From: Patescibacteria group bacterium
GTDB taxonomy: Bacteria > Patescibacteriota > Microgenomatia > UBA10105 > UBA927
NCBI GenBank assembly: GCA_049322955.1
Contig: JBMOPU010000012.1
Coordinates: 788,791 to 852,790, forward strand
Direction: 5' to 3'
Length of the DNA stretch: 64,000 bases
Position 1 is the stretch's first letter. Every line of letters begins with the position of its first letter. The position numbers and the translations under genes are program-made. Of this stretch, positions 4,982-18,937 are shown one piece after another. Under the pieces are notes generated by a model. That model did no database searches, was not told the DNA's origin, and saw only the letters and a list, made by a program, of their open reading frames with translations.

Positions 4982-5857
4982 ATGGAAAATTCCATGACTG
5001 TGGCCGTTTCATCTGACTGGAAAGAGTATGAACTGATCGACAGCGGCAACGGCGAGAAACTTGAGCGGTTTTCGTCATATATCATTTCCCGTCCCGACCC
5101 GCGCGCCATATGGAAACCCATTGCCCCCTCCGCCGTATGGGACAGGGCACATGCGCGGTACGTACGGGGATCCAAAGAAGAAGGGTATTGGGACATCAGG
5201 ATGCCTCCCCCGCAAAACTGGCAGGTTCGTTACCATGACCTCGTATTCACCCTGAAACCGACGTCTTTTAAACACGTGGGGGTGTTTCCCGAACAATCCG
5301 TAAATTGGCGATGGATGATGCAGACAATTGCAGGACGTCCGCTCAAGGTATTAAACCTGTTTGCGTACACCGGAGGTGCCACCATGGCGGCGCTTGCGGC
5401 GGGAGCACATGTTACCCATGTAGATAGTGCAAAAGGCGCCATCGAGTGGGCAAAAGAAAACGCCACAGCTTCCGAACTGATCGATAAACCGGTTCGCTGG
5501 ATTACCGATGATGCGGTGAAATTTGCGGCAAGAGAGCTCAAGCGCGGCAATACCTATGACGGCATCATCCTTGATCCGCCGCGTTTCGGCAGAGGACCCA
5601 AAGGTGAGGTGTGGAAAATTGAGGTCGACCTGCCGAAACTTACCCCGATACTCACGGGGCTTTTGTCCCCCAACCCCGCATTTGTTTTGATAAACGCCTA
5701 CACTGCGGACTTATCGGCACTCGTAATCGGTCACTTACTGCAGGATATGACGGCATCTCTTCCGGGCACCCGATCGTTCGGCGAATTGACGATTGCGGAT
5801 TCGACAAGCGGTCGATTGCTTCCCAACGGTATTTTCGCCCGATGGAGCGCTTCCTGA
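4982..5857 (+). CDS. Class I SAM-dependent rRNA methyltransferase (RlmI/RlmK-like)
   Basis: Motif I LNLFAYTGGATMAALAAGA, VDSA, and ILDPPRFGRG (DPPxF) in the same order and spacing as E. coli RlmI catalytic domain. Confidence 0.6.
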   Translation: MENSMTVAVSSDWKEYELIDSGNGEKLERFSSYIISRPDPRAIWKPIAPSAVWDRAHARYVRGSKEEGYWDIRMPPPQNWQVRYHDLVFTLKPTSFKHVGVFPEQSVNWRWMMQTIAGRPLKVLNLFAYTGGATMAALAAGAHVTHVDSAKGAIEWAKENATASELIDKPVRWITDDAVKFAARELKRGNTYDGIILDPPRFGRGPKGEVWKIEVDLPKLTPILTGLLSPNPAFVLINAYTADLSALVIGHLLQDMTASLPGTRSFGELTIADSTSGRLLPNGIFARWSAS

Positions 5858-6023
5858 GCAGATTCAAGTTTGCTATAATAAGGTGCCCTAAAACCGATGC
5901 GAAAAGAGCGAGGTTGCAAAAAGGGCATAATCCGTTGCGAAGGGGTGATACAGTTGGGAGAACCTTCGCAACTTATTGAAGGAAAAGCGTTGGGGAAAAA
6001 CCTCGGTTTTGCCCCATGAAGAT

Positions 6024-6097
6024 GCCCCCTTAGCTCAACGGCAGAGCAGCGGTATCGTAAACCGTAGATGTCAGTCCAATTCTGACAGGGGGCTCCA
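6024..6097 (+). tRNA. tRNA-Thr (anticodon CGT), includes encoded CCA
   Basis: Hand-folded: acceptor GCCCCCT/AGGGGGC, D-arm GCTC/GAGC, anticodon stem GCGGT/ACCGT with loop ATCGTAA (anticodon CGT), T-arm GTCAG/CTGAC, discriminator T then CCA. T-loop (TCCAATT) deviates slightly from canon. Confidence 0.75.
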
Positions 6098-6103
6098 AAA
6101 TTT

Positions 6104-6817
6104 ATGATTTCATCCCGATTACGAAGAGTTGAGGAAAAAAAAGCTTCCAAACGGATGGCAATGGCCGTTATCGGGATGGTGGGAACACTCGTGTTCCTTG
6201 CGCTTTTCGGCGTAAAAATTCTCATCGGTTTCAGTGTGTTAGTGGATAAAATTCGCGGGAACTCCCCCGCCCAACAGCAACCGCAGGAATCCCTGATCCT
6301 TCCGCCGGTACTTGATCCGCTTCCCGAGGCCACCCATAGTGCTACCCTCGACGTGCACGGCAGGGGCACCGCGAAAATGACGGCAATACTTTTCGTCAAT
6401 GACAGTGAGTACAAAAAAGTGCCGATTACCGATGACGGAAGCTTCACCGTCACGGATATTCCGGTCGAACCGGGAACGGTCACCGTACGCGCCAAAATTA
6501 CCGACGGAAAAGACAACACCAGTGATTTTTCCCCCGTCATTTCCACTGTTGTGGATCGAACCCCGCCGAAACTGACCATCGACAATCCCGAAGATAACAT
6601 CACCGTCAATGACGGGACACATAAAGTTACAGTTAACGGGATCACCGATGAAGGCATGAAAGTGACGATCAACGGACGGATTGTCGTCGTAAAATCAGAC
6701 GGATCGTTCACCTACAGCATGCCATTAAATGATGGGGATAATCTTTTGACTATAATCGCCAAGGATCCGGCGGGTAATGAAACTTCGCAAACCCGTAAGG
6801 TTATTTATAAGCCGTGA
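6104..6817 (+). CDS. Membrane-anchored hypothetical protein with Ig-like beta-rich repeats
   Basis: TM helix near N-terminus, Gln/Pro-rich linker, then repeated T/V/D/G-rich beta-strand-like segments (e.g. VTVNGITDEGMKVTINGRIVVV). Confidence 0.45.
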   Translation: MISSRLRRVEEKKASKRMAMAVIGMVGTLVFLALFGVKILIGFSVLVDKIRGNSPAQQQPQESLILPPVLDPLPEATHSATLDVHGRGTAKMTAILFVNDSEYKKVPITDDGSFTVTDIPVEPGTVTVRAKITDGKDNTSDFSPVISTVVDRTPPKLTIDNPEDNITVNDGTHKVTVNGITDEGMKVTINGRIVVVKSDGSFTYSMPLNDGDNLLTIIAKDPAGNETSQTRKVIYKP

Positions 6818-7982
6818 TTTCCTGTTCCATTGTTCCAGTGAGTATCCACAGCCATACCAACACCCACGGGTAAAACAGACTATTCACAAACAGACTGTGT
6901 AAGAGGAGTGCGGTCAACACACCCAGATACGTAGCCGCGGACAACCGATGCTTCTCGCCTGCTCGGTACAGTCGCATCCCCGATCCAAAAAGTGACACGA
7001 GTAACCATACGTACACCCCAAAACCGACAAGTCCTGTAGTCGCTCCCACAAAGAGCAGGCTCGTGTCCAGTCCCGCCCCCGCCCTTGAGGGGACGGACGA
7101 TTCATCAAGCCAGCTCCGCTCTCTTGCCACAAACCGCAAAAGATTAAATCCGTGACCGAATAACGGCTTTTCTTTGATAAGGGTGATCGCCCGCTGGGCA
7201 TTACCGACCCGGGCATACGAAGACACACTGCGGAATAGGTTGCGGCCTTCGCCCGAATTCGGCAGTAACAGAAAACCCACAAGAACTGCGGCGATGACAA
7301 TCCCCGCCAGCTTTTTATACCCGGAAAGTACCGCCCACACGATAAGACCGCCGACCAGTGCGACTATACTACTTCGGGAATACGTCAGGGCAAAGGCAAG
7401 CAACACCAGTCCCGTTAACGCATATCGCATGAACGGTTGCATGCCTTTGTGTTGTGTTCCCAGAAGCGAAAGGAGGGTAAGCGTGAGGATGATCCCCATA
7501 AAATTCGGATCAAGCAGGGTACCGAACAGTCGTTGATAGTGAGGATCCCACCCAAGATACGCAAGATTCCGTAAATCGGGGTACCAAAAATACTGAAGCA
7601 AGCCGACACCCGCCATGCACACTCCGGAGAGGGTGAGTGTACGCCGCCAAACGACGGGAGCAAATAATTTCCCCACGGCTGTCCAATACAACGCGGCATA
7701 TAGGAGGAAACGGAGCACATAAAGGAGTCCTCCTCCCACGACATAGAGCGGCACATTTGTCACTGTCTGTGCCAGTGAAATAAGGCAGATTCCGGTAAAT
7801 GCGATTATCGGTGCCCAAAGATGCGGGATTATACGCTTTTTTCCGCTTCGGAGCGCTCCGTACAAAACGAGGACAAGCACGGAAATATCAAGCAGGGTCA
7901 CCCGCGCACCCAACGCGACGGGCATCGAAATAATGTTTCCCGCGATGAGTCCCGCGGCAAGAAACAGTAAGGGATAGTGCAT
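6801..7982 (-). CDS. O-antigen ligase-like (Wzy_C domain) polytopic membrane protein
   Basis: ~10-12 predicted TM segments with a central larger loop; segment ALTYSRSSIVALVGGLIVWAV resembles Wzy_C/WaaL core; neighbourhood of glycosyltransferases. Confidence 0.5.
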   Translation of the reverse strand: MHYPLLFLAAGLIAGNIISMPVALGARVTLLDISVLVLVLYGALRSGKKRIIPHLWAPIIAFTGICLISLAQTVTNVPLYVVGGGLLYVLRFLLYAALYWTAVGKLFAPVVWRRTLTLSGVCMAGVGLLQYFWYPDLRNLAYLGWDPHYQRLFGTLLDPNFMGIILTLTLLSLLGTQHKGMQPFMRYALTGLVLLAFALTYSRSSIVALVGGLIVWAVLSGYKKLAGIVIAAVLVGFLLLPNSGEGRNLFRSVSSYARVGNAQRAITLIKEKPLFGHGFNLLRFVARERSWLDESSVPSRAGAGLDTSLLFVGATTGLVGFGVYVWLLVSLFGSGMRLYRAGEKHRLSAATYLGVLTALLLHSLFVNSLFYPWVLVWLWILTGTMEQEITAYK

Positions 7983-7983
7983 A

Positions 7984-9066
7984 TCAAAAAATACTTACTA
8001 GCCAAAGTATAATCGCTCCGATAGTCCCGTGAGAAGCGGGTATCCACCCGAACGGCAAACCGGTGAAAAATCCCGGTGATGCAACATTGGCGCTTATCAA
8101 CAGATACCCGAGCACCAAGAGGCCCCGAAACATCTTTTTTTCATTACGTTTCCACAACACAAAAAAAGTCGGAATCAAAAAAACAAAGTGATGTTGCCAG
8201 GCAATGGGTTCGACAAGCAAAAATACCGGCATTGCAAGCCATAATGCCTCGGGAAACCGTATTTTATTTTTTCGGAACGCAGAGGCGGTTACGGTGATGA
8301 TGATACCCGCGATAATTGCGTACGAAATAACGTCTGTTGTTCCCATTCGCGCCAACAATCCCGTAATCCCCTGATTGTAGTAGATACCGTGATCCTGCCA
8401 TGTCCCCATTGCTTTCTGCATCCGTTCCGCGTATCGCACGTACGCATCAAATCCGTACACGCCCAACGATGCGATACCAACACCTGCCATCCACGCACCA
8501 ACGGAAAGCAGAGTCGTCCACCGACGGTATGCCAGAAGCACCGCCAGGAGAAGGATAACCTCCGGCTTGATAAGAACAGCCAGCGCGAATAATCCGCCCA
8601 TTACCAGCCGGTGATATTTATTTTCATAATAAATCGCACCGATAATGAGTGCCAACGCGTAAAAATTAACTTGCCCCATCCCCAAGGTAAATTGACTGGG
8701 AAATGACAAATAGCTCAAAGCGACAAGGGTAAGTGTCGTTCGCGTGTCGGTTACTCCTGATTGTCTTGCCAGGAACCATACGATACCGACAAGACTGGCA
8801 AATGAGCCAAGTATCCATAACGCTTCCATAATTTCATACGGAAGAAGCGCCAACGGGGAAAATACCAATAGCGACGCGGGGGGCAACAGGTGGATGGGAC
8901 GCGGGACGTTTCGTATTACCTCTCCGGCCGCCTCGTAGTAATAGAAAAAATCCGGTGCGGATGTGGCGATGATCCGAAACACGGAAACCGCGGCCTTGAG
9001 CGCCGCGCCGACAACGACAACCCATTGAGCGACGACAATTACCCGCGCTGATTTTGGAGTTGCCAT
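7984..9066 (-). CDS. DUF2029 / GT87-like integral membrane glycosyltransferase
   Basis: Polytopic membrane protein with the DFFYYYEAA-type motif seen in DUF2029 (GT87 mannosyltransferase-like) proteins. Confidence 0.45.
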   Translation of the reverse strand: MATPKSARVIVVAQWVVVVGAALKAAVSVFRIIATSAPDFFYYYEAAGEVIRNVPRPIHLLPPASLLVFSPLALLPYEIMEALWILGSFASLVGIVWFLARQSGVTDTRTTLTLVALSYLSFPSQFTLGMGQVNFYALALIIGAIYYENKYHRLVMGGLFALAVLIKPEVILLLAVLLAYRRWTTLLSVGAWMAGVGIASLGVYGFDAYVRYAERMQKAMGTWQDHGIYYNQGITGLLARMGTTDVISYAIIAGIIITVTASAFRKNKIRFPEALWLAMPVFLLVEPIAWQHHFVFLIPTFFVLWKRNEKKMFRGLLVLGYLLISANVASPGFFTGLPFGWIPASHGTIGAIILWLVSIF

Positions 9067-9785
9067 ATTTTTGCTCGGGTAAGAAATGAGTGAAAACTCA
9101 TCATGAGGGCAACAATACTTCCCACAACACCGTCACGGTACCCTTGCTTGCCGACATAGTTTAGGAAAAATTTTGCCAGGGGATACGCGACTATCTGCCA
9201 TACCGTAACCCGGGTGCCGGTTTCATAAAAATGTTTTGCGTTTATCGTGGAATAGTCGTTGATGTCCCGAAGAAATTCCGCCACCGTCTGATGCGGCATA
9301 TGCGTAAGCGGAGCATTGAGTGTCCCGACAACTCCCGCCACCTTCCATACCTCATGTACGGGTCGGTGCCATTTGCCCTTTCCGCTCCTGCCGAGGCGGA
9401 GGAGTCGCACCCCTGCCGTCTCACCGAATCGTAATGTCGTTCCCCAGAGCACATCCTGCCGTTTGAGGAAGAAGCCGCTGACATCCACCTGAAGAACCGC
9501 TTCTTGTATCTCGCGGGCAAGTTCAGGACTCACCACTTCATCGGCATCGACAAAGAGTATCCATTCTCCCCGGGCTTTGGATAGTCCGAAATTACGTTGA
9601 GCGGCAAAATCACCATTGATGGCACGAGTGTGCACAACCGCTTTTTTTCTCTTTGCGACGGCAATCGTGTCATCGGTGGAATTGTCGTCTATGACAATCA
9701 CTTCGTTGCAAAATCGCACGCTATCAAGCGTCATCTCGAGTGTCCGGGCGGCATTGCGGGCGAGAATAACTGCGGATATACCCAT
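9039..9785 (-). CDS. Glycosyltransferase family 2 (WaaE/KdtX-like)
   Basis: ISAVILARNAA...VIVIDDNSTDDT...FVDADE (DxD) signatures of GT2; C-terminal hydrophobic segment. Paralog of 15317..16009. Confidence 0.75.
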   Translation of the reverse strand: MGISAVILARNAARTLEMTLDSVRFCNEVIVIDDNSTDDTIAVAKRKKAVVHTRAINGDFAAQRNFGLSKARGEWILFVDADEVVSPELAREIQEAVLQVDVSGFFLKRQDVLWGTTLRFGETAGVRLLRLGRSGKGKWHRPVHEVWKVAGVVGTLNAPLTHMPHQTVAEFLRDINDYSTINAKHFYETGTRVTVWQIVAYPLAKFFLNYVGKQGYRDGVVGSIVALMMSFHSFLTRAKIWQLQNQRG

Positions 9786-9812
9786 AGTATGTATTCATTG
9801 TATCATACGGCT

Positions 9813-10916
9813 ATGACGCGAAAATCGGTGTTTTTGGTCATCATTGCCGTCTATATTGCCGTTTTCAGTGTGCATGCGTGGTATCTCCAAAAAACCGTCT
9901 ATGGTGACGGCATTTTTTATTATTCCTGGCTTCGATCGGTCGTCGTTGACCGTGATATCCACTTTGCCAACGAGTACCTAAAATCATCGGTTTCTCAACC
10001 GATGATTACGGAAACCAAACCAGGCAATAAGTACAGTATCGGACCGGCACTGTTTTGGGCACCGCCCTACGTAGCGATCCACACCGCACTACGGGGAGAC
10101 GGATGGACGTTAGCGTATCAGGTTGCGGCAGGGGTAACTTCCGTTGCCGCTTCTCTTGCGGGACTCATTTTATTAACCCGCCTGCCTCGTTTCCCGTCAG
10201 CCGTGATTGCCAGTACTATTTTGCTTCTTGCCGGTGCGACGAATTTACTGTTTTACGGAGCAATCGATCCCGTGAATTCACATGCGCTTTCCTTTTTTTG
10301 TGCGGTGATCTTTTTGGCGTTTTTGGGGATGCCGCAAAAAAATTGGAGTGCAATCGGCGTGAGTCTTGCCCTACTGGCATCCGTACGACTGCAGGACCTG
10401 GTGTACGTTTTGTTATTGTTGCCGCATGCGAAGCAGATTCGTTGGCAGAATTTGCTTGCCGGTTTCGGGATCGGGTTTATACCCCAGCTGGCCGCGTGGT
10501 ACGCACTCTACGGCACCCTCGCCAATCCATACCTTGCGGGCGGCGAAGGTTTTACGTTCCTCAGACCGCACATGTGGGGAGTACTTTTCGGCATCCAAAA
10601 CGGTCTCTTCCTTTGGACGCCGATTGTTGCCGTGGGCGTGTACGGATTACTCAGCAAATGGCGGAAATATAGGATGTATCTGCTCATTTTTGGCTTACAG
10701 TTATACTTTGTGTCAAGTTGGAGCACCTGGTGGCAAGGTGCCAGCGTCAGCGGACGCATGTTTGTGAGTACACTTCCGCTGATTGCATACGGGATTTCAG
10801 AGGTTATATCTACCCTTTATCGCCACCGGATTCTTCGAGGAGTTCTGCCGCACATCACCGTGAGCGTTTGTGTCATCAATGCCCTGGGGATCGCGTATTA
10901 CCTTGTCAGCCACTAA
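9813..10916 (+). CDS. GT-C fold membrane glycosyltransferase-like protein (ArnT/PMT-like)
   Basis: Start chosen at ATG 9813 (MTRKSVFLVII...) rather than ORF-track 9597, which would overlap the divergent GT2 gene. Multi-TM with acidic loop motif VVDRDIHFANEY after TM1, reminiscent of PMT/ArnT loop-1 DE motif. Divergently paired with a GT2. Confidence 0.45.
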   Translation: MTRKSVFLVIIAVYIAVFSVHAWYLQKTVYGDGIFYYSWLRSVVVDRDIHFANEYLKSSVSQPMITETKPGNKYSIGPALFWAPPYVAIHTALRGDGWTLAYQVAAGVTSVAASLAGLILLTRLPRFPSAVIASTILLLAGATNLLFYGAIDPVNSHALSFFCAVIFLAFLGMPQKNWSAIGVSLALLASVRLQDLVYVLLLLPHAKQIRWQNLLAGFGIGFIPQLAAWYALYGTLANPYLAGGEGFTFLRPHMWGVLFGIQNGLFLWTPIVAVGVYGLLSKWRKYRMYLLIFGLQLYFVSSWSTWWQGASVSGRMFVSTLPLIAYGISEVISTLYRHRILRGVLPHITVSVCVINALGIAYYLVSH

Positions 10917-12096
10917 GCACTTCGTTGTACAAGTCTGCAATTTGACGGGCGCCGACAGTTATGTCGTGTACGACTTGTGCCCGTTTGCGCGCACGCGTTG
11001 CCAGCGTAGCGCGCAGTTGCGGTGTGGTCACTAATTTGGTTATGGCGGATGCAAGTGCTGATGCGTCGCCGGGTGGAACAAGCAATGCCGCGCCGCCGAC
11101 GTTTTCCGGAATACCCCCGGTGCGTGTCGTCACAATAGGGAGCCCTGTTGCCTGCGCTTCCAGAAGCGTCATCCCATATTGCTCTTCCCATGTGGCAATC
11201 GGTTTGCTCGGGGCGACAAAAATATCGGCTGAGCGATAGATAGTCGGCATCCGGTCATACGTAGCACTCTCTAAACTAGAGTGCCAATTTTTCCCTTTTT
11301 CCTCAGAAAGCCGCAAAACGTCCCGTTTGAGTGCGCCATCTCCAACGAATCGCCATCGAAATTCGTACGTACGTAACTGCGGCATAGCCCCCAATCGACG
11401 TACGGTCTCAAGAAGCTCGTCTATCCCTTTTTCCTGAACCAGCCTGCCGGCATATAAAATGGTAAAGGACTTTTTCCCGGGGGCTCCTGCCTTTCGCTCC
11501 CACCCTACGGGCGGATGAAATCGTGACGTATCCACGTGTGCCCCGATAACGCTAATGCGCGCGCCGTCAGCTCCCTCCATAATGAGTGCCTCTTTGGCCT
11601 TCCGGGTTACGGCGATGATGTGATCAAGCTCCTGAATCGCCCGCTGTTTGAAATGTGCCCGCCCCCATATGCCTTCATTGGCATGGGGAAGCGTCTCCCA
11701 TACGGTGGCGATGACTTTCTTCACCATACCCGCCTTTTTGGCATCAAGGCATTGCTTGGTGTAGTGGTAGTAGGTTTCGGCGGTATGCGCGATATCTACA
11801 CCCGCAAGCCGCTTCTCCAGCCCGAATAGGTAATGCGCATCGACGAATATTCGATTGAGGATCGGCATCTTGTACGGAAAATTCGGTATATCCATAGGGC
11901 TAAAAAGCGCGGTCACCGGGAAGGGAAAAGAGTGATGAATGCTTTTTTGGGATCCGATCGCCGTGAGATCAAAGCGACGAGAGAGCGGCGCAAAACTCTG
12001 CATATCATACCGGTTTAGAAATGCGCCGCGGACAAGGGCAACTCGTGGTTTTTGCATACGGATGGGGTTAGAAAACACTCGCAACACTTTGTGCAA
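10906..12096 (-). CDS. Glycosyltransferase family 4 (GT-B, RfaB-like)
   Basis: C-terminal GT4 signature EEQYGMTLLEAQATGLPIVTTRTGGIPE (E-x7-E motif). Confidence 0.8.
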   Translation of the reverse strand: MHKVLRVFSNPIRMQKPRVALVRGAFLNRYDMQSFAPLSRRFDLTAIGSQKSIHHSFPFPVTALFSPMDIPNFPYKMPILNRIFVDAHYLFGLEKRLAGVDIAHTAETYYHYTKQCLDAKKAGMVKKVIATVWETLPHANEGIWGRAHFKQRAIQELDHIIAVTRKAKEALIMEGADGARISVIGAHVDTSRFHPPVGWERKAGAPGKKSFTILYAGRLVQEKGIDELLETVRRLGAMPQLRTYEFRWRFVGDGALKRDVLRLSEEKGKNWHSSLESATYDRMPTIYRSADIFVAPSKPIATWEEQYGMTLLEAQATGLPIVTTRTGGIPENVGGAALLVPPGDASALASAITKLVTTPQLRATLATRARKRAQVVHDITVGARQIADLYNEVLSG

Positions 12097-13144
12097 AACC
12101 CGACCAGGTAAATTGCTTGGCGCGTGTTTTCCCCATATGCGCCAAGGTATGACGGAGATCTTTTTGTGTGGCTATTCGTATCATCGCACGGGTGAGGGCG
12201 GCGTCATCCTCCGGATCCACCAGTAGACCCGCATTTTCCACCACCTCAGGATATGAACCTGCGGTTGATCCGATAACAGGAGTGCCCGTCGCCATGGCTT
12301 CAACGACCGGAAGACCGAACCCTTCAATGAGCGATACACTGACAAACGCGGTGGCACCCCGATAATACTGGGAAAGGGTTTCATCATCGACAAACCCTAT
12401 CGTGTGCACCCTGTCTCGTATGCCGAGCGCGTTAATGGTTGCCGAGATCCCCGGATCTAACCAGTAATCGCTTCCCGCCAGGATAAAATCATACGGCGTT
12501 TTACTCGACTTCAAAAAATCCGCGAATGACCGAAGCATCATCGGAACGTTTTTCCCCGGTTTCAAGGAACCGACAAACAAAAAGTACGGATTCGTTCCCT
12601 TAAATACCGGACCGGTTGGATGGAATTGTTTTTCCACACCCAAATAGGCAACCGTGAGCTTCTCCGGCCGTACCTTGTAATGTTTCCGTATGCTTGCGGC
12701 GGATGCATGTGAGATGGTGATGATATGATCGGCACGCCGAACGACATCGGCTGTTTGTCGGGAAAGGGCAAAATACGACTCGCGATAAAATTCTGGCTGA
12801 TCCATGAATCCGACGTCATAAATAAACCCGATTTTTCTAACGTCGTACAATGTAAGTGGAAGGGCTTGTGAAATACCTAAATACACCTCTACGGGATGTT
12901 TGATAAGTTCTATCGGTTGCCAGATTTTTTGAAACCCGTGGCGCGGTAATCCGACAAATGAAACATTCTTTCGGATAAGCGAAGCACTACCCTCCTCTCC
13001 CCTTTTGAAGCTGTACACCCTATAGTCATTTGCCGCGGCAAATCGGGGCAATTCTTTCACGAGGTTATAGGCTACCCGATACACACCGACTTTTAACCGG
13101 TCATCCGAGATAGAAAGTGCACCGCCGTCTATGCCAACCTTCAT
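12068..13144 (-). CDS. Glycosyltransferase family 4 (GT-B)
   Basis: EGFGLPVVEAMATGTPVIGSTAGSYPEVV signature; 29-nt overlap with downstream GT4 suggests translational coupling. Confidence 0.8.
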   Translation of the reverse strand: MKVGIDGGALSISDDRLKVGVYRVAYNLVKELPRFAAANDYRVYSFKRGEEGSASLIRKNVSFVGLPRHGFQKIWQPIELIKHPVEVYLGISQALPLTLYDVRKIGFIYDVGFMDQPEFYRESYFALSRQTADVVRRADHIITISHASAASIRKHYKVRPEKLTVAYLGVEKQFHPTGPVFKGTNPYFLFVGSLKPGKNVPMMLRSFADFLKSSKTPYDFILAGSDYWLDPGISATINALGIRDRVHTIGFVDDETLSQYYRGATAFVSVSLIEGFGLPVVEAMATGTPVIGSTAGSYPEVVENAGLLVDPEDDAALTRAMIRIATQKDLRHTLAHMGKTRAKQFTWSGFAQSVASVF

Positions 13145-13920
13145 AATTTTCCTTCCTTTATCATACCAAAGCGACCGAAGACGAAATCGCGAAGCCCGAG
13201 CAATGCCCCTTTTTCCCGGCGAGCGACGTGTTCATACAGCGTTTTCCCCAGACGGAAAAATTCGTAGAGCTTTACGGGAGTAGGCGCCAGGCGGGCAACA
13301 AACAGCATATGATTCCGCGCGAGATAGTACTGATGCAACTCCGATCCTCTCCCCAATGAAGCGGATTCTTCATGGGCAACGTCGACAAGATCTATACGCG
13401 TTAACGGATACCCTGCGTTTTTGGTACGGATGCAGTAGTCCGCGTCTTCGTAATAGAGAAAGTACGGTTCGTAGAAGTAGCCGACTTTGCCGATGATGCG
13501 CTCATGGATCGCAACGCATGAACCCGTGAGATAATCAAGCTTTTTCGAGGGAAGAATGGTCGTCCAGCGACTTTCATCGAGCCCCGCGGCAAAGGTGCCT
13601 GCTACACATGGAGGAAGTTTCCGGAGCTGACGAATAAGCGATAACACGGCCGGTCGGGTAAGCACCATATCCTGATTTAAAATCACAAACCATTTGGCGC
13701 CGAAGCCGCTGGCGTTATGTATCCCGATATTTGCCGCCGCACCGTAGCCAACATTTTTTGTCTGCGACAACAGTGTAGCGCGCCCCACATCATCAAGGGT
13801 CAACGTTCCTCCGTTATCGACGATAATGACGGGATACCCTTCCAAGGTACGAAGCAACCTCCGAAAGTCGCGCATCTTCGGGCGATACGCGATGATAATA
13901 AATGCGATGGACTTGTTCAT
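13141..13920 (-). CDS. Glycosyltransferase family 2 (rhamnosyltransferase-like)
   Basis: IAFIIIAYRP...VIIVDNGG...FYYEDADYCIR typical of WbbL/GT2 rhamnosyltransferase-like enzymes. Confidence 0.75.
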   Translation of the reverse strand: MNKSIAFIIIAYRPKMRDFRRLLRTLEGYPVIIVDNGGTLTLDDVGRATLLSQTKNVGYGAAANIGIHNASGFGAKWFVILNQDMVLTRPAVLSLIRQLRKLPPCVAGTFAAGLDESRWTTILPSKKLDYLTGSCVAIHERIIGKVGYFYEPYFLYYEDADYCIRTKNAGYPLTRIDLVDVAHEESASLGRGSELHQYYLARNHMLFVARLAPTPVKLYEFFRLGKTLYEHVARREKGALLGLRDFVFGRFGMIKEGKL

Positions 13921-15338
13921 TTTCTCCTGAGCAATTCCCCGCCTTCCGCCGGCGGCGCGCCTATTTTTTCATACTTTGCCGAAACATACAAGAAAAGTGC
14001 CTCCGGCGCGTATCCATCGTAATATTTATTCGGCGGATGAAACGGAGCGTACAGGATGTACTCGGGCTTTGCGGCTTCAAGCGAGCGGATCAGCCGGTCT
14101 TCCATGCCGGGAACTTTTCCGTTCCACGGAAAAAGAGGAACCCAGGGAAGCACTACCGGTGTTTCATTTCGCCCAAAGTACACATAATCGTAATTTCCCA
14201 AAACATACAGACTCCCGGGAGCATGGTCATCGAGATATGAAACAAGCGATTCATACTTGGCGGTAAAAAAAGTCGGTTGCATCGGGTCACGAAGCGTGAC
14301 AAAGACTCTGAAGCTCCGCCAGCTCCCGAGAATTGTCAGACATATCGCAAAAACAAGTAAGACAATTCGCGTGTTTTTCTTGTGATAATCAACGGCTCCG
14401 AGAAACGAAAGCCCCACAGCAATAAACGCAAGCATCGGTTGCAATCGATGCAGTCCCCATCGAGGAAGACCGGCCAAAAGTACCGCCACCGTGAACACGA
14501 TAAGGAGCAATCGCTCTTTTTTCATGGGTGACAGGATAAGTGCGGCAAAAGGGATGAGCGCCGGGGCAATGAGGGTCAGATCGGAACGGGGCGGAGCAAG
14601 CGCATACATGCTTGATTGTCCCGACAGAAAACCCAAAAATCCGAATACCCAGAAGCCGTATTCGACACCCGCACCCTGAAGGGCAAAGTATCCCCAGGAT
14701 ATGCCTTGCATGACAACGGTAACCGCACCGATAGCAACCGCATGAAAAAAGGATGAACGTTTTTCCTTTCCCGTTAGCCAGATAAACAGACATATGAAAG
14801 CAAGCGGCCAAATAGCGGTTTGTTTGATCAGCGTCGCGATGCCCAGGATGGCTCCCACCAAAAGCACGCGGGACAACCGCGGTCTCTCAATATAACCGAG
14901 AAGTAATAAGTAGGTAAGAAGGTAGAGCGGGGCAAGTATCGTCTCATACCAAATGGTATTACCGGAAAAAATCGGTTGCCAAAGAACGAAAAAGAAAAGA
15001 GCAATAATGCCCATCAATCCCGACTTTGTGACTTTCCTGGACACCACATAAACCAGCCAATCGGTCAGCAAAATAAATCCGTATGCGATAGCTCGTTCGG
15101 AACCCGGACTATAACCGAGAAGTGAATATAACCCATGAAGCAAATAATACGACCCGGGGACATACGCGAGTACAACATCACGATAGTACAACATTCCTTT
15201 GCTGAGAAACCACGGATAGACCAGCATCTCAGGCCAATCCACGAATGTCGTATGGAACAGCAACCAAAGATGGAAGGCAATCGCAGTAAGGAACGCGGTG
15301 ATCTCCAAATACGGATTTAGCCGAAAATATTTCGCCAT
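13917..15338 (-). CDS. GT-C fold membrane glycosyltransferase-like protein (ArnT/PMT-like) with C-terminal extracytoplasmic domain
   Basis: ~10 TM helices then ~150 aa soluble C-terminal domain, architecture of ArnT/PMT/PglB-type GT-C enzymes. Start set at internal Met (MAKYFRL...) to limit overlap with the upstream GT2; the longest ORF would start at 15416. Confidence 0.45.
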   Translation of the reverse strand: MAKYFRLNPYLEITAFLTAIAFHLWLLFHTTFVDWPEMLVYPWFLSKGMLYYRDVVLAYVPGSYYLLHGLYSLLGYSPGSERAIAYGFILLTDWLVYVVSRKVTKSGLMGIIALFFFVLWQPIFSGNTIWYETILAPLYLLTYLLLLGYIERPRLSRVLLVGAILGIATLIKQTAIWPLAFICLFIWLTGKEKRSSFFHAVAIGAVTVVMQGISWGYFALQGAGVEYGFWVFGFLGFLSGQSSMYALAPPRSDLTLIAPALIPFAALILSPMKKERLLLIVFTVAVLLAGLPRWGLHRLQPMLAFIAVGLSFLGAVDYHKKNTRIVLLVFAICLTILGSWRSFRVFVTLRDPMQPTFFTAKYESLVSYLDDHAPGSLYVLGNYDYVYFGRNETPVVLPWVPLFPWNGKVPGMEDRLIRSLEAAKPEYILYAPFHPPNKYYDGYAPEALFLYVSAKYEKIGAPPAEGGELLRRK

Positions 15339-16009
15339 AGCAGTAACCAATACATAAGGCTTTCCATATAGCCGAAGCAAAGTGCTATGAGTATTCCTCG
15401 CCATCCGTCCCGCCACCCCTCATCTTTAATGGCTCGCGCCCAAACCATATGAGGACCGTAGAGAAAAAGTTTTTTGAGCGTTACTCTTTCTCCCGCTTTT
15501 TTCTTTTCCCCTGCCATCTGCCATGCATATTTAGTGAATTTGAGTAGAACATAAGTAATTGACCTATATGAATAGTGCAATATTTTGCCACGACATACGC
15601 CAATATCTCCATTTACGGATATTTCCTCATGTATTGGCAACTCCGATACAGATGCTTTTATTTTTTTAAATAAACGTACTTTTTTGTACACTTCCCCCCC
15701 ATATAAAAGTGGCTTATCACCGACATGGTTTTGATATCTAATTGCATAGCCTGAAATCAAGATATTAGGGTTGCTAATAATCCTTCGAATATCAATTAAA
15801 AGATCGTCTGTAACGATCTCATCAGTATCAAGCAATAAGACCCATTCATAAGCGGCAAGTCTTAAGAGATGATTCTTTCGAGCACCTAGAGGCTCGTAAC
15901 CATTTTGACTAATATCTACGATTATTTGTGGGTTTAACGGTAATACGCTTTTAATAGTTCTAATTAAGTAATCGTCTATTTTTTGGCAAATGATCAAAAT
16001 AGATATCAT
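15317..16009 (-). CDS. Glycosyltransferase family 2 (WaaE/KdtX-like), AT-rich
   Basis: MISILIICQK...LLLDTDE (DxD)...C-terminal hydrophobic tail; paralogous in organisation to 9039..9785; strongly AT-rich codon usage versus the surrounding genome. Confidence 0.7.
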   Translation of the reverse strand: MISILIICQKIDDYLIRTIKSVLPLNPQIIVDISQNGYEPLGARKNHLLRLAAYEWVLLLDTDEIVTDDLLIDIRRIISNPNILISGYAIRYQNHVGDKPLLYGGEVYKKVRLFKKIKASVSELPIHEEISVNGDIGVCRGKILHYSYRSITYVLLKFTKYAWQMAGEKKKAGERVTLKKLFLYGPHMVWARAIKDEGWRDGWRGILIALCFGYMESLMYWLLLWRNIFG

Positions 16010-16011
16010 AA

Positions 16012-16857
16012 TTATAATTTCTTCAAAAGAAGTAAAGATAAACCGCCTCGATTCGTTATAACACTTAGCAACTCAATTATATGTAATATAGGCATAAGGA
16101 TAATAAATAAACACTTAGTGAACATATTTTTCTTGAATATGCCCATAATATTTAAGATGAAGTCATTTCGATCTTGGTATGTAAATTTCTTTAATATGAT
16201 AAATCCTCTATTTTGCATGTATTGCGATATAAAATCAAAAGAAAAATGAAGCACATGGTCGGGAATTGACCACCAATCCCATTTTTCTCCTGTAATATAT
16301 GCCATATAACTTTTGTAATTTGGTACTTGAAGCAAAAGAAGACCATTTGGTTTTAAAACCCGCTTTAGTTCTGTAATATTATTATTAATGTTAATGCTGT
16401 GTTCTAGTACATCAAGACAAGTTATCACATCAAAGAAATTATCGTTGTAAGGTATTTGATCTAGGGAACCTGTAGCGATATTCAGTTTAGAATTAAGTTT
16501 TGCTACTTTCCGCAATTTATCGTTTGGTTCAACACCATATGGATTAAAAAAGCTATTCTTTTTAACATATTTTAGAAAAAAGCCCGTGCCACAACCAATA
16601 TCAAGCAAGTTTCCATCTGTTTTATATCTATTGATTAAATGTAGGAAATTTTTATATCTCTCATTAAACTTACTCAATTTTTCCTCATAATCTTTTGCAT
16701 AACCTGTTTCATATTGTTTTTTTATAAATTTTTTTCTTTTTTCTTCATCTACTGGGTTAAAAAGTAAGGTGCATTTATTGCATGAAAAAATCACATGACC
16801 ACTTATATTTGCATATTCACTAGTAATTTCTGAGCCACATGATGGACACGGATACAT
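16012..16857 (-). CDS. Class I SAM-dependent methyltransferase with N-terminal Zn-ribbon
   Basis: CPSCGS...CNKC Zn-ribbon, then motif I LLDIGCGTGFF and motif post-I/II (VITCLDVLEH), Methyltransf_11/12-like; AT-rich. Confidence 0.7.
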   Translation of the reverse strand: MYPCPSCGSEITSEYANISGHVIFSCNKCTLLFNPVDEEKRKKFIKKQYETGYAKDYEEKLSKFNERYKNFLHLINRYKTDGNLLDIGCGTGFFLKYVKKNSFFNPYGVEPNDKLRKVAKLNSKLNIATGSLDQIPYNDNFFDVITCLDVLEHSININNNITELKRVLKPNGLLLLQVPNYKSYMAYITGEKWDWWSIPDHVLHFSFDFISQYMQNRGFIILKKFTYQDRNDFILNIMGIFKKNMFTKCLFIILMPILHIIELLSVITNRGGLSLLLLKKL

Positions 16858-16954
16858 GCGGGTAGTTTATCACATTCTTTATGTGGTATTTCTTACTGAC
16901 AATATTTTTATGTAGTGCTATTTTCAAAATTATATTTGTAGCCGCAGGAGATTT

Positions 16955-18937
16955 ATGAAATTATTCCTGTCCACTCTAGCGGTTTTGATTTTCTGTATTT
17001 TTCTTTTAGCTCAAACCACGTCGGTTAAGGCGTCTTATATCTTCTCTGATTCCTTTTTAAACTCATATAGCAATGAATGGAGCGTACCTAGTAGTACTTT
17101 CCCTCCCGTTTTAACTTCATCCGGGATTACAGGTACTGATATAAGTAATTCGTGGACTGTTTTGGAATATGCTATTGCAGGCAACTATATTTATCAGATT
17201 GAATTTGATATTACTGTTAATAAATCAACAAGCCAACAAACATGGGGACTTGGTATAGGTGATAACCAAAATAACTGGAAAATTATAAACACATGGCAAA
17301 ATTATCTTCAATTACATGATTCAAATAATAACGATAAGCTTGTGTCTTGGAATCATTCTTTAGGCAAGCATCATTTCGTTGTAAGAATATCACCTCAATC
17401 TAACACAGACATTATTATTTATGAGGACGATATTTTGTTAGGATCCGTTAACACCTCTTCTTCCTTTGAATTAACTAGAGTTTGGATATCTTTTTTGGGT
17501 AACGGAGACTACGAAATGGCAAATTTTGTTCTTTCCACATACGAAGAACCTACACCGACCCCAACGGTAGAACCGACGTTAACCCCGACACCATCGCCCA
17601 CTCCTACACCAACGCCTTTACCGACAGCGACTCCCACACCGGCATCTGAAGCACCCCGGAAAGTTATCGTCATACATGGCGCGGGAGGAAGTTGGAACAA
17701 AGACGCCCTCCTAAATTGCAAAACGACCGAATATTCGGGAGATTGGTCGCCGTGGAAAATAAAAAATGCTGATATATATGATTCACTTACCAATAATATA
17801 CGAGCACACGGATATGAAGTGTTGCCGTTTTACTACGATTGGCGAAGAAATGCACCGGATTCCGCACAACAACTCAACGCATTTATCACTTCCCGAGTGC
17901 CAGCCGGTCAGATGGCTGATGTCGTGGCACACAGTTTTGGCGGAATAGTGAGCCGAACATATGTGGCATCCGCAAAAAGCGAAAGTCGTATCCGATCGCT
18001 ACTCACGGTTGGCACCCCGCATCAGGGATCAGTGCTTGCATATCCTGCGTGGTCTGCAGGCGAAATGTGGATAGACGATATCTCAATACGGCTCGGATTT
18101 ACCATGATGCGCGTAGGGTGTGCCATCAAAAACGACATGTCCGCGCGGGAAACAGTACATGTATCAATTCCGGCAACACAAAACATTTTACCGATATTTG
18201 ATTATCTGAAAACACCGTCGGGGAAAACCATTTCCGTAGCGGAAATGACGGCAACAAATAATCTGCTTCCCGATACATATGTGCCGCCTTACTACGACAT
18301 ACGGGTAGGTGCTCTATCCGGTTCCGGATATCAGACGCTTCGCACGCTAGAAGTACAACCGGCAAGCAAAAATGATCGTCGGCTAGGGAATTGGACAGAC
18401 GGTAGGCCGACAAATAATAAAGCCTATGCCGATGGTGACGGCACGGTATTAACCGAGAGTAGCGTGTTATCGGATGCTGAAAATGTAATACTTCCGCTCG
18501 ATCATGCCGGATTGGTGACTGATCCGACCGGAATCGATGCCATACTTGGTTTTCTTGATAACCAGGCTTTTACACAATCAATGCTGAGATTGAACAGGCA
18601 AACACCAATCAAAATCAAACCTGCAAAAAACACCTCGGCACTTCTTCTCGTTGCCGATAACGCGCATCTTACGCTTACCGACAATAACGGAAATAAAACG
18701 ACCGATGATGAAGGGCAAATCACCATTCTCGATCCCCACCTGCAGGCATATACCCTTACTGTCATACCGTCTAAAAAATGGTGGTGGCAGAAAAAAGCGA
18801 AAATTATCGTTATCCAGCTCTTCGACGACGGCACTTCAACCTGGAAAGAATATACCCACACGGGCACCGGGAACAAAAAATGGAAACTTCGATTTGATGC
18901 GCATCGAAAAAACAACGACATCCTACATGACCGATGA
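16955..18937 (+). CDS. Secreted alpha/beta-hydrolase lipase/esterase (PGAP1/LCAT-like) with N-terminal unknown domain and Pro/Thr-rich linker
   Basis: Signal peptide-like N-terminus; ~190 aa unknown domain; linker EEPTPTPTVEPTLTPTPSPTPTPTPLPTATPTPAS; catalytic region with VVAHSFGG (GxSxG-type nucleophile elbow) and HAGLV near C-terminus. Composition switches from AT-rich (N-terminal domain) to GC-rich (hydrolase domain). Confidence 0.65.
   Translation: MKLFLSTLAVLIFCIFLLAQTTSVKASYIFSDSFLNSYSNEWSVPSSTFPPVLTSSGITGTDISNSWTVLEYAIAGNYIYQIEFDITVNKSTSQQTWGLGIGDNQNNWKIINTWQNYLQLHDSNNNDKLVSWNHSLGKHHFVVRISPQSNTDIIIYEDDILLGSVNTSSSFELTRVWISFLGNGDYEMANFVLSTYEEPTPTPTVEPTLTPTPSPTPTPTPLPTATPTPASEAPRKVIVIHGAGGSWNKDALLNCKTTEYSGDWSPWKIKNADIYDSLTNNIRAHGYEVLPFYYDWRRNAPDSAQQLNAFITSRVPAGQMADVVAHSFGGIVSRTYVASAKSESRIRSLLTVGTPHQGSVLAYPAWSAGEMWIDDISIRLGFTMMRVGCAIKNDMSARETVHVSIPATQNILPIFDYLKTPSGKTISVAEMTATNNLLPDTYVPPYYDIRVGALSGSGYQTLRTLEVQPASKNDRRLGNWTDGRPTNNKAYADGDGTVLTESSVLSDAENVILPLDHAGLVTDPTGIDAILGFLDNQAFTQSMLRLNRQTPIKIKPAKNTSALLLVADNAHLTLTDNNGNKTTDDEGQITILDPHLQAYTLTVIPSKKWWWQKKAKIIVIQLFDDGTSTWKEYTHTGTGNKKWKLRFDAHRKNNDILHDR

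Follow-up and report, generated by a model that had tools for sequence, protein, structure and literature searches.

A conserved glycosyltransferase cluster in a patescibacterial genome, most likely for the assembly of a cell-surface glycan

Gene content and conservation of the cluster

A 64-kb stretch of DNA (the window) from a Patescibacteria (CPR) bacterium with a tiny genome contains a gene cluster encoding three GT-C enzymes (a GT87 protein included), a Wzy_C protein, two GT4 enzymes, three or four GT2 enzymes and a methyltransferase (Table 1). An earlier note had described this region as a dense glycosylation island; Pfam matches and identical gene calls by NCBI PGAP (MFZ5535367-76, on a contig of 990 kb) bear this out, and all the genes that it listed are present at the positions given, but it had omitted a third GT2 enzyme (GT2r), the methyltransferase and an Ig-like protein.

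Table 1. Genes of the cluster and its lipase-like neighbor (positions within the window)
Feature	Position	Strand	Basis of assignment
Ig-like membrane protein	6104..6817	+	Pfam Glucodextran_B, Big_13, Big_6
Wzy_C multi-pass membrane protein	6801..7982	-	PF04932
GT87 (PimE-like) GT-C	7984..9066	-	PF09594
GT2a	9039..9785	-	PF00535, 72 bits
Short GT-C, 367 aa	9813..10916	+	AlphaFold model
GT4a	10906..12096	-	Glycos_transf_1, 97 bits
GT4b	12068..13144	-	Glycos_transf_1, 108 bits
GT2r, rhamnosyltransferase-like GT2	13141..13920	-	PF00535, 28 bits
GTC_L, 473-aa ArnT/STT3-like GT-C	13917..15338	-	PMT_2, 28 bits
GT2b	15317..16009	-	Alignment with paralogue GT2a; GT2 Pfam 18 bits
SAM-dependent methyltransferase	16012..16857	-	Methyltransf_23, 88 bits
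Secreted LCAT/PGAP1-like alpha/beta hydrolase (lipase-like)	16955..18937	+	Pfam LCAT, PGAP1, Abhydrolase_1

The gene order is kept in at least seven related Patescibacteria/Gottesmanbacteria lineages, and its recurrence extends to relatives with only 37% identity in the 473-aa GT-C protein. Such recurrence across relatives argues that the arrangement is not due to chance. The core set across the related loci consists of GT2b, GTC_L, GT2r, GT4b, GT4a, GT2a, the Wzy_C protein and the Ig-like protein, while GT87, the short GT-C, the methyltransferase and extra PMT_2/YfhO genes form a variable set. The cluster is a real, evolutionarily conserved set of sugar-transferring enzymes.

The Ig-like protein is a single-pass membrane protein (Glucodextran_B, 79 bits), encoded convergently with the Wzy_C gene with an overlap of 17 nt. 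Its orthologue adjoins Wzy_C in six relatives (L001, L004, L005, L008, L009 and L011), as part of the syntenic block. The protein may serve as an acceptor or as a partner of the chain-length or cell-wall-associated kind. The Wzy_C protein, of the O-antigen polymerase/ligase superfamily, scores 47.2 bits against a cut-off of 31.7 and is named 'O-antigen ligase family protein' by PGAP; no NCBIfam or PDB sequence match sets its subtype (polymerase, ligase or protein O-oligosaccharyltransferase). The 360-aa GT87 protein matches its Pfam model with 87.8 bits and PimE (9dm5) with an E-value of 1.3e-14, its 'AWQHH' aligning with PimE as an SWxHH-like motif; it is an accessory module, found among the relatives only in L007, L009 and L011. 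GT4a and GT4b are cytoplasmic enzymes of GT-B fold. For GT4a the start codon is not certain, and translation might begin at an internal ATG (12057); the exact 396-aa product was not found in the protein collection. GT2r matches the TIGR01556 rhamnosyltransferase model with an E-value of 1.3e-15, below its cut-off. The methyltransferase gene, the first of the operon, is very AT-rich (GC 0.29) and encodes a C-terminal hydrophobic segment; it recurs in L006, L009 and L011, with a remnant in L001.

No phosphoglycosyltransferase other than MraY, no flippase and no GtrA/SMR/MATE gene is encoded within the 64-kb window, and the cluster contains neither a classical initiating enzyme nor nucleotide-sugar genes. 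A Wzx flippase gene lies within the cluster of a distant relative (L014).

GT-C membrane proteins and their GT2 neighbors

The earlier note had named two large GT-C membrane proteins, each adjacent to a GT2 gene. AlphaFold models (pLDDT 90-92) display a GT-C fold for both GTC_L and the short GT-C, all top structural matches being ALG12, ArnT, STT3/AglB/PglB and Aft, and acidic residues are conserved directly after TM1, in the first outer loop, in both families. The assignment as GT-C enzymes therefore holds for both, but "large" does not suit the 367-aa protein, which lacks a soluble domain. Because both combine this fold with conserved acidic first-loop residues, the classes that were to speak against the earlier reading (O-antigen/teichoic-acid polymerases or non-catalytic membrane proteins) are not what we found.

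GTC_L passes the PMT_2 cut-off of 26 bits, and 26 of 31 homologues match PMT_2. Its AlphaFold2 model (pLDDT 91.7) retrieved STT3, AglB, ArnT, PglB and AftA in Foldseek with E-values of 5e-7 to 1e-4 (TM-score 0.60 with ArnT); residues D34, E37, R53 and D54 are conserved after TM1, and a C-terminal outer domain of about 110 aa follows the membrane region. The short GT-C, an accessory module on the strand opposite to the operon, consists of the membrane domain only; it has no Pfam, NCBIfam or PDB sequence match, and its model is nevertheless unambiguously GT-C. The PMT family proper (PF02366) was matched by neither protein and by none of the 74 homologues scanned, leaving the broad PMT_2 family as the only one of the two that is matched. 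In structure, too, GTC_L is much further from PMT than from OST and ArnT: solved PMT structures gave E-values of 4e-3 to 0.2 in Foldseek, compared to 5e-7 for OST and 6e-6 for ArnT.

GT2a, a GT-A glycosyltransferase of GmaR/SunS/WaaE-like type, carries membrane-interface helices at its C-terminus, and GT2b is its paralogue. In profile searches of the PDB with GT2a/GT2b, GmaR (2.6e-31 over about 190 residues) and SunS (2e-18) were the closest solved structures, while DPMS matched at 2.8e-5 over the N-terminal 100 residues, ArnC at 0.14-0.27 and GtrB not at all. Neither protein is thus of the DPM1/GtrB/ArnC type; the earlier note had proposed to look for a DPM1/GtrB signature. In IMG, one GT2 homologue bears the name '(heptosyl)LPS beta-1,4-glucosyltransferase'.

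GT2b overlaps the start of GTC_L by 22 nt, and the two genes always co-occur side by side in the relatives. In several they are fused: P0039 and P0236 join GT2b orthologues to GT-C, and in P0035 a GT2a-like domain occupies the position of GT2b. Overlap, constant co-occurrence and fusions argue that this pair is genuine and functionally coupled. GT2a, on the other hand, occurs in every related locus, even where the optional short GT-C is missing, and was thus rejected as a dedicated partner of the latter; of the two pairs proposed earlier, both are adjacent, but only GT2b/GTC_L is evolutionarily coupled.

A distant relative, P0340, falls in the GTC_L family (profile E-value 4e-49), and its N-terminal GT2 domain matches ArnC (1e-18), GtrB (9e-18) and DPMS (1e-15). 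This fusion, in which a GTC_L-family member carries a genuine polyprenyl-phosphate glycosyltransferase of ArnC/GtrB/DPMS type, fits a synthase/transferase logic. L013 has a separate DPM1/ArnC-like GT2 and a Wzy_C-PMT_2 GT-C fusion (1042 aa). GT2b of the window scores below the Pfam GT2 cut-off; alignment reveals that it has lost the DDxSTD nucleotide-binding segment, while DxDE and HEE are retained and the C-terminal membrane-interface region is highly conserved. This 230-aa form is kept in L008, L009, L011 and about 60 or more protein clusters. Lacking DDxSTD, GT2b of this clade may be incapable of charging a lipid carrier. The suggested synthase/transferase pairing is thus favored by the GT2b/GTC_L overlap, the fusions and P0340, but not by the GT2 type in the window or the loss of DDxSTD.

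Secreted neighbors of the cluster

The lipase-like protein, encoded divergently from the operon, has a signal peptide, an N-terminal beta-rich domain and a Pro/Thr linker. Orthologues adjoin the cluster in L001, L004, L006 and L011, with the linker at the same position, making the protein a conserved neighbor and a candidate functional partner only. The thermonuclease (SNase) gene is present as described. The Pro/Thr-rich linkers reported earlier are real, with 17 (lipase), 11 (SNase) and 9 (2348-2986 protein) P+T per 20 residues; only 3 of the 67 long ORFs of the window reach 9/20, and all of these lie no further than 15 kb from the cluster. Linkers of this kind commonly join the domains of secreted proteins, and their presence is non-specific as evidence for O-glycosylation. 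A membrane-anchored PIG-L deacetylase is encoded 5 kb from the cluster.

Candidate functions and related systems

The most likely function of the cluster is to assemble and decorate a glycan on the cell surface, outside the membrane; sugar-coating of secreted proteins is possible, and the earlier interpretation as protein O-glycosylation is partly supported. The Wzy_C protein and the two GT4 enzymes, together with Wzx in relatives, are no less compatible with the assembly of a glycan polymer. Multicomponent transmembrane glycosylation underlies wall polysaccharides of Gram-positive bacteria (lactococcal PSP, streptococcal Gac) as well as O-antigen modification. With a slightly better than even chance of being right, we propose for the locus a conserved assembly line of this kind, built from modules and similar to PSP/Gac. 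Synthesis would begin at the cytoplasmic face, where a sugar is placed on polyprenyl phosphate by GT2b, which is membrane-associated, or by an enzyme encoded elsewhere; GT2r, GT4b, GT4a and GT2a would lengthen the lipid-linked glycan from nucleotide sugars, and the methyltransferase would modify it before an unlinked flippase carries it outward. On the outer face, the Wzy_C protein would polymerize or ligate the glycan, and GTC_L, coupled to GT2b, would perform the key transfer from a lipid-linked donor to the final acceptor. GT87 and the short GT-C, as optional modules, would add side-chain sugars from polyprenyl-phosphate-sugar donors, such that the surface structure would differ between lineages. 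The order of events and the sugar donors are inferred, and so, most of all, is the acceptor: wall polysaccharide, lipid anchor and protein are all candidates.

Among the alternatives, PMT-like transfer of single sugars, from polyprenyl-phosphate-sugars made by the adjacent GT2 enzymes to Ser/Thr in the Pro/Thr linkers of secreted proteins like the nearby lipase and nuclease, appears unlikely. The GT-C fold and acidic loops of both proteins, the GT2b/GTC_L coupling and fusions, the conserved linker of the lipase-like neighbor and the proximity of the window's only three PT-rich ORFs agree with it, but PF02366 is unmatched throughout, GTC_L is structurally nearer to OST and ArnT, the GT2 enzymes are not of the type required of a Ppm1/DPM1 synthase, and the core Wzy_C, two GT4 and three GT2 enzymes would be superfluous for single-sugar O-mannosylation; moreover, such linkers are generic, and L005 retains the cluster without the lipase neighbor. 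Wzy_C domains characterize O-oligosaccharyltransferases and ligases alike, and low-complexity Pro/Ser/Thr/Ala regions are typical O-oligosaccharyltransferase targets. With its Wzy_C match, its PT-rich secreted neighbors and an Ig-like membrane protein always beside Wzy_C that could be the acceptor, the cluster might thus glycosylate proteins en bloc through a PglL/PilO/WsaB-type enzyme, the GT-C enzymes merely decorating the glycan; given that no PglL_A or Wzy_C_2 match was found at E<=0.01, that the Wzy_C protein has no NCBIfam or PDB match for typing and that the window contains no pilin genes, we regard this as very unlikely.

In mycobacteria, PimA/PimB'/PimE/Mpt pair GT4 with GT-C enzymes. 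A PIM/LM-type lipoglycan, in which GT4a and GT4b add sugars to a membrane lipid (possibly host-scavenged) inside and GT87 and the other GT-C enzymes extend it outside from polyprenyl-phosphate-sugar, is improbable. The homology of the GT87 protein to PimE, the similar pairing of two GT4 with GT-C enzymes, the conserved LCAT/PGAP1-like lipid hydrolase or acyltransferase and the nearby PIG-L deacetylase speak for this explanation, as do weak GT4 similarities to GlcNAc-phosphatidylglycerol synthase (1.7e-17) and monoglucosyl-DAG synthase (1.7e-12), although none of the GT4 matches is specific and all fall far short of the family cut-offs. GT87, in addition, is accessory rather than core, and Wzy_C, with Wzx in relatives, indicates repeat-unit polymer assembly. 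In contrast to the mycobacterial setting of PimE, no phosphatidylinositol-mannoside pathway is evident.

The favored glycan assembly line shares with PSP/Gac (WpsA/B-WpsG-WpsH/I-WpsJ; GacI/J-GacK-GacL) a GT2 on the inner face and GT-C enzymes acting outside on lipid-linked donors, elongation of a lipid-linked unit by cytoplasmic glycosyltransferases, a Wzx-type flippase (here only in L014) and structural diversity from accessory GT-C modules. It differs in its GmaR/SunS/WaaE-like rather than GacI/GtrB-like GT2 enzymes, in the lack of a flippase in the window, in Wzy_C in place of the lactococcal polymerization proteins WpsH/WpsI (one of GT-C fold), in the lack of an evident rhamnan pathway and in its CPR host. 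For lactococcal PSP, GT2 initiation on polyprenyl monophosphate has been proposed, with a classical phosphoglycosyltransferase dispensable for the PSP branch (PMC10821137); MraY as the window's sole phosphoglycosyltransferase would fit such initiation. Three-component systems (as defined in PMC11127046) such as GtrA/GtrB/Gtr*, CsbB/GtcA/YfhO and ArnC/ArnT, which act on O-antigen or teichoic acid, likewise have a GT2 gene adjacent or fused to a GT-C gene and a catalytic acidic loop after TM1, and GTC_L resembles ArnT in architecture, while the GT2 fused to its distant family member is of true ArnC/GtrB type; here, by contrast, the partner GT2 is of another subfamily with an eroded nucleotide-binding motif, a flippase gene is missing, and the pair sits inside a larger assembly operon.

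Actinobacterial Ppm1/Pmt O-mannosylation (GT39) shares the polyprenyl-phosphate-sugar logic of its GT-C enzyme and Pro/Thr-rich secreted proteins as candidate targets, yet the window has no DPM1-type synthase. GmaR is the Listeria flagellin O-GlcNAc transferase, SunS/ThuS are peptide S/O-glycosyltransferases and WaaE/LgtF are LPS-core glucosyltransferases. The GT2 proteins studied here differ from this group in that they belong to an organism without LPS, have no TPR or peptide-binding domains, bear membrane-interface helices at the C-terminus and are linked to a GT-C protein by coupling or fusion.

Organization and conservation of the glycosylation locus

The minus strand between positions 16857 and 6801 carries two operons of tightly packed genes, on which PGAP gene calls agree with ours; according to the coordinates, several gene junctions in the cluster overlap by 4–29 nt. 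All genes listed in the earlier note were found in the window, but that list had overlooked a rhamnosyltransferase-like GT2 (GT2r), a methyltransferase and an Ig-like membrane protein. An additional ORF (5731–6711, minus strand, 326 aa) was discarded as spurious, as it overlaps a tRNA-Thr gene (6024–6097) as well as the Ig-like gene on the opposite strand and is without a family match. The window stems from a Patescibacteria (CPR) genome. Core genes (ParB, signal peptidase, YceG) surround the locus, which has been retained in different lineages; core genes also occupy the rest of the window, with the dcw/mur cluster and the genes for IleRS, ParB, L27 and signal peptidase. The large GT-C protein, GTC_L, has a 100% identical counterpart among NCBI MAG proteins, encoded on a 990-kb contig, and homologs carry the name Candidatus Gottesmanbacteria.

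Features of the glycosylation locus, with positions in the window
Feature	Position	Strand	Placement or content
Operon 1	16857 down to 10906	-	methyltransferase, GT2b, GTC_L, GT2r, GT4b, GT4a
SAM methyltransferase	16012-16857	-	operon 1
GT2b	15317-16009	-	operon 1
GTC_L (473-aa GT-C)	13917-15338	-	operon 1
GT2r	13141-13920	-	operon 1
GT4b	12068-13144	-	operon 1
GT4a	10906-12096	-	operon 1
GTC_s (367-aa membrane protein)	9813-10916	+	between operons 1 and 2
GT2a	9039-9785	-	operon 2
GT87	7984-9066	-	operon 2
Wzy_C	6801-7982	-	operon 2
Ig-like single-pass membrane protein	6104-6817	+	convergent with Wzy_C

We compared the locus with related loci by tblastn of the window proteins. Gene order is the same in relatives down to 37% identity of GTC_L, and the cluster arrangement is therefore no chance juxtaposition. 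GT2b, GTC_L, GT2r, GT4b, GT4a, GT2a, Wzy_C and the Ig-like protein are present in every compared locus. The variable genes are those for GTC_s (the short GT-C protein; missing from L001, L009 and L011), for GT87 (restricted to the window/L007, L009 and L011), for the methyltransferase, and for the neighboring lipase, which L005 lacks; L004 and L006 have additional PMT_2 or YfhO genes. Such swapping of outer modules (GT87, GTC_s, methyltransferase, extra PMT_2/YfhO) in and out of the locus is what one would predict if hosts or phages exert diversifying selection on a surface structure. A scan of a genome collection with two peptide patterns returned 6 loci, which is no estimate of distribution; a GTC_L profile search, the better measure, found 276 protein clusters at E<1e-30 and 963 at E<1e-10.

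Two side observations concern the compared loci. In L001 (4332–4760; also in L002 and L003), tblastn uncovered a methyltransferase-like stretch with 38% identity, in which the called ORFs comprise only 45 and 67 aa; the stretch lies upstream of a GT2-GT-C fusion and probably represents a methyltransferase gene in decay. In addition, the MAG records of L007 (CAYUZE010000002.1), L008 and L011 are titled "uncultured Gammaproteobacteria bacterium"; L007 proteins are 96–100% identical to those of the window, the syntenic locus is also found in L008 and L011, and the labels of these third-party assemblies look wrong.

Fold and conserved acidic residues of the GT-C membrane proteins

Sequence methods barely detect either of the two GT-C membrane proteins: GTC_L scored 28.2 bits on PMT_2 (PF13231), against a gathering threshold of 26.1, and GTC_s matched nothing in Pfam, NCBIfam or sequence searches of solved structures. 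NCBIfam gave no family-level assignment for Wzy_C, GTC_L, GTC_s or GT2b. Neither the two GT-C sequences nor the profiles of their families nor the Wzy_C sequence gave usable matches among solved structures, so that folds had to be compared, and AlphaFold2 models of GTC_s and GTC_L were built on family alignments (pLDDT 90.5 and 91.7, respectively; pTM 0.91 each). In the predicted models, the multi-pass membrane domain superposes on solved GT-C enzymes. Foldseek aligned GTC_L with STT3, AglB, ArnT, PglB and AftA at E values of 5e-7 to 1e-4, ArnT giving the best TM-score (0.60), and with PMT structures at E values of 4e-3 or worse.

Both families retain acidic residues near the N-terminus. Y30, D32 and G33 (Y30-G-D32-G33) are invariant in the GTC_s family, with D46 present in at least 90% of 43 sequences; in the GTC_L family, D34, E37 and D54 (D34-W-P-E37 and R53-D54) occur in at least 90% of 31 sequences. 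The secondary structure of the models places these acidic residues directly after TM1 in both families, where they would lie in a putative first extracytoplasmic loop of GT-C type with a predicted role in catalysis. Arg/Lys residues at the N-termini of both proteins fit a topology in which the N-terminus is cytoplasmic and the loop faces outward.

The earlier assignment of both membrane proteins to the GT-C enzyme class stands, as neither was classified as a polymerase and neither family has lost the acidic residues. A placement among the PMTs is not supported: PF02366 and PF16192 (PMT_4TMC) are unmatched by both window proteins and, at E≤0.01, by all 31 GTC_L and all 43 GTC_s homologs. Nor are PMTs the closest structural relatives, since GTC_L lies nearer to STT3, AglB, ArnT, PglB and AftA. 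The broad PMT_2 model is matched by 26 of the 31 GTC_L homologs and, at E≤0.01, by 16 of the 43 GTC_s homologs; the window copy of GTC_s is without such a match, and PMT_2 membership of GTC_s is borderline. The top Foldseek matches STT3, AglB and PglB had also prompted us to consider GTC_L as an N-oligosaccharyltransferase. We rejected this as the main reading, given a C-terminal domain of only ~110 aa, the best TM-score of ArnT and the fusion of one family member to a monophosphate-sugar synthase.

With GTC_s and GTC_L, the GT87 protein makes three GT-C enzymes in the locus. It matches PF09594 with 87.8 bits (cut-off 25) and PimE (9dm5) at an E value of 1.3e-14 over residues 55–306. On the NCBIfam PimE equivalog it reaches 70 bits, far under the cut-off of 413, and we therefore regard it as a member of the PimE family but not as an ortholog.

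The GT2 proteins and their coupling to GT-C enzymes

In an alignment, the paralogs GT2a and GT2b have in common DxDE and HE motifs and a C-terminal amphipathic G-x-x-DG-x-x-G region. Searched against all solved structures (PDB), their family profile matched GmaR (2.6e-31 over ~190 positions), SunS (2e-18) and the ThuS-like 7msk (6e-15); DPMS followed at 2.8e-5, over the N-terminal 100 residues only, and ArnC at 0.14–0.27, and GtrB was absent among the PDB matches. With GmaR and SunS closest, neither protein fits the DPM1/GtrB-type synthase signature that the earlier note had proposed to check, and profile matching places both outside the DPM1/GtrB/ArnC subfamily. We know of no characterized GT2/GT-C pair that uses a GT2 from outside this subfamily. 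One homolog, P0453, with 53% identity to GT2b, carries the IMG name "(heptosyl)LPS beta-1,4-glucosyltransferase".

Relative to GT2a and to its orthologs in L005 and P0039, GT2b of this clade has a deletion of ~18 residues that includes the DDxSTD nucleotide-binding element. It keeps DTDE and HEE, and the C-terminal membrane-interface region is its most conserved part. The short, 230-aa form is kept at 55–65% identity in about 60 or more protein clusters, which argues that it is under selection and no pseudogene. GT2b may be a pseudo-enzyme or a partner subunit of the GT-C protein; its role may be that of a lipid-charging, non-orthologous replacement of a DPM1-type GT2, of an elongating GT or of a largely structural partner.

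One of the two GT2/GT-C pairs proposed in the earlier note was upheld. GT2b and GTC_L occur together in every case, with a 22-nt overlap between the two coding regions, and in several lineages they are fused into single proteins of 727–735 aa (P0035, P0039, P0236). The second pair dissolved: GT2a is kept in loci without GTC_s and so has no dedicated partner in this protein.

P0340, a distant member of the GTC_L family (E 4e-49, matched via its C-terminal domain), has an N-terminal GT2 that differs from GT2b and matches ArnC (1e-18), GtrB (9e-18) and DPMS (1e-15). Judged by these matches, the N-domain is a genuine, if predicted, polyprenyl-phosphate glycosyltransferase of ArnC/GtrB/DPMS type. 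The P0340 locus, L013, additionally encodes a free DPM1/ArnC/AglJ-like GT2 (9395–10117); DPM1/GtrB/ArnC-type GT2s were found only in such distant relatives. The same locus bears a natural 1042-aa fusion of Wzy_C to a PMT_2 GT-C (10746–13874), which suggests that Wzy_C and GT-C act on one substrate outside the cell.

Proposed glycan assembly, possible protein targets and neighboring genes

The Wzy_C protein matches PF04932 with 47.2 bits (cut-off 31.7), in line with a polymerase or ligase of the Wzx/Wzy type; at E≤0.01 this is its only match, with PglL_A and Wzy_C_2 unmatched. Gram-positive O-OTases such as WsaB likewise have only Wzy_C, so a role as a PglL/PilO-type protein O-oligosaccharyltransferase is compatible with this pattern. 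No dedicated flippase of the GtrA, SMR, MATE or Wzx type was found among the window ORFs, and two small multi-TM ORFs considered for this role turned out to be a DgkA-like kinase and a holin_4_2 family protein. A Wzx protein (PF01943/PF13440) is encoded inside the cluster of the distant relative L014. The window also holds no initiating phosphoglycosyltransferase, its sole PF00953 protein being MraY in the dcw cluster.

In the multicomponent systems for the lactococcal polysaccharide pellicle (PSP) and the streptococcal group A carbohydrate (Gac), synthesis begins when a GT2 places a sugar on undecaprenyl monophosphate; after optional elongation by cytoplasmic GTs, the product is exported with the help of a Wzx-type flippase, and its transfer to the acceptor outside is the task of a GT-C enzyme (PMC10821137; for a general definition of three-component glycosylation systems, see PMC11127046). 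The present locus fits transmembrane glycosylation of this type because the parts list matches: besides the GT2 that is coupled to an ArnT/STT3-like GT-C, there are four other cytoplasmic GTs, a methyltransferase, Wzy_C and optional GT-C modules; a phosphoglycosyltransferase is missing from the locus, and relatives carry Wzx. With the Gtr, CsbB-GtcA-YfhO and ArnC-ArnT systems it shares a GT-C transferase, but unlike these systems the window is without a DPM1/GtrB/ArnC-type GT2 and a flippase. In a PSP/Gac-type assembly line, GTC_L would carry out the core transfer outside the membrane, Wzy_C would polymerize or ligate the glycan, and GT87 and GTC_s may add lineage-specific side chains.

The earlier note had envisaged O-glycosylation of Pro/Thr linkers. 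The Pro/Thr-rich stretches are indeed real, with 17, 11 and 9 P+T per 20 residues in the lipase-like protein, the nuclease and the 2348–2986 protein, respectively, and these are the only 3 of 67 long window ORFs with at least 9 of 20. Protein glycosylation in any form, via a PMT/TfpW-like GT-C or a PglL/PilO/WsaB-like Wzy_C, draws what support it has from this neighborhood, as both the lipase-like neighbor and the site of its PT linker are conserved. However, PT linkers are ordinary interdomain linkers, L005 has the cluster but no neighboring lipase, and single-sugar O-mannosylation would need far fewer genes than the core set contains; type IV pilin genes, as possible targets, were not found in the window. 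We therefore consider protein glycosylation rather unlikely. Greater still are our doubts about a narrower version, in which, in this CPR clade, a GmaR/SunS/WaaE-type GT2 displaced the DPM1/GtrB type as membrane partner of an ArnT/STT3-like GT-C, to which it is fused in some lineages, and the pair initiates a glycan on polyprenyl phosphate and transfers it to Pro/Thr linkers of secreted and surface proteins; were this very improbable scenario true, ultra-small episymbionts would possess general protein O-glycosylation of an undescribed enzymatic make-up.

Assembly of a surface glycan of PSP/Gac type remains the preferred reading. The enzymes come from known superfamilies and already have generic PGAP names. 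What is unusual is the coupling or fusion of a GmaR/SunS/WaaE-type GT2, with its nucleotide-binding motif eroded, to an ArnT-like GT-C, the existence of a sister lineage in which a canonical synthase is fused to a member of that GT-C family, and the presence of three GT-C enzymes in a genome of ~1 Mb. CPR/Patescibacteria live attached to other cells; to our knowledge, almost nothing is known about their own surface glycans, and no study of a locus like this one came up in our searches of the literature on glycosylation in Patescibacteria/CPR. The GT2-GT-C fusions offer a cloneable entry to a first biochemistry of the pathway and allow asking whether a polyprenyl carrier can be charged by a GT2 other than the DPM1 type.

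Part of the locus falls into an AT-rich patch (15500–17600), with GC contents of 0.29 for the methyltransferase gene, 0.37 for GT2b and 0.31–0.41 for the 5' third of the lipase gene, compared to 0.49 for the whole window. Recent lateral transfer into this genome was rejected as the cause, since relatives show the high AT content of these genes as well; in L006, L009 and L011, the methyltransferase and GT2b genes lie 6–15 GC points under their surroundings. Low GC is a recurrent property of this module.

The secreted LCAT/PGAP1-like hydrolase (16955–18937) is a conserved divergent neighbor of the operon, and its N-terminal β-rich domain varies among relatives (629–802 aa; faint GH130/GH32-like matches in L004 and L006). 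As CPR bacteria are generally reported to be without lipid synthesis, a role of this predicted hydrolase in lipid harvesting linked to the glycan locus is conceivable. Elsewhere in the window, a gene of DgkA type (diacylglycerol/undecaprenol kinase; 48047–48421) adjoins mraY in the dcw cluster and is followed by a FemAB-family gene (48483–49532), and a small Phage_holin_4_2 protein with 3–4 TMs (33792–34139, minus strand; 106 bits) is encoded among unannotated small ORFs (33–41 kb). Finally, at a distance of 5 kb from the cluster, positions 943–1755 encode a membrane-anchored protein of the PIG-L family (GlcNAc-PI de-N-acetylase-like), which could remove N-acetyl groups from a glycolipid or glycan that contains GlcNAc.
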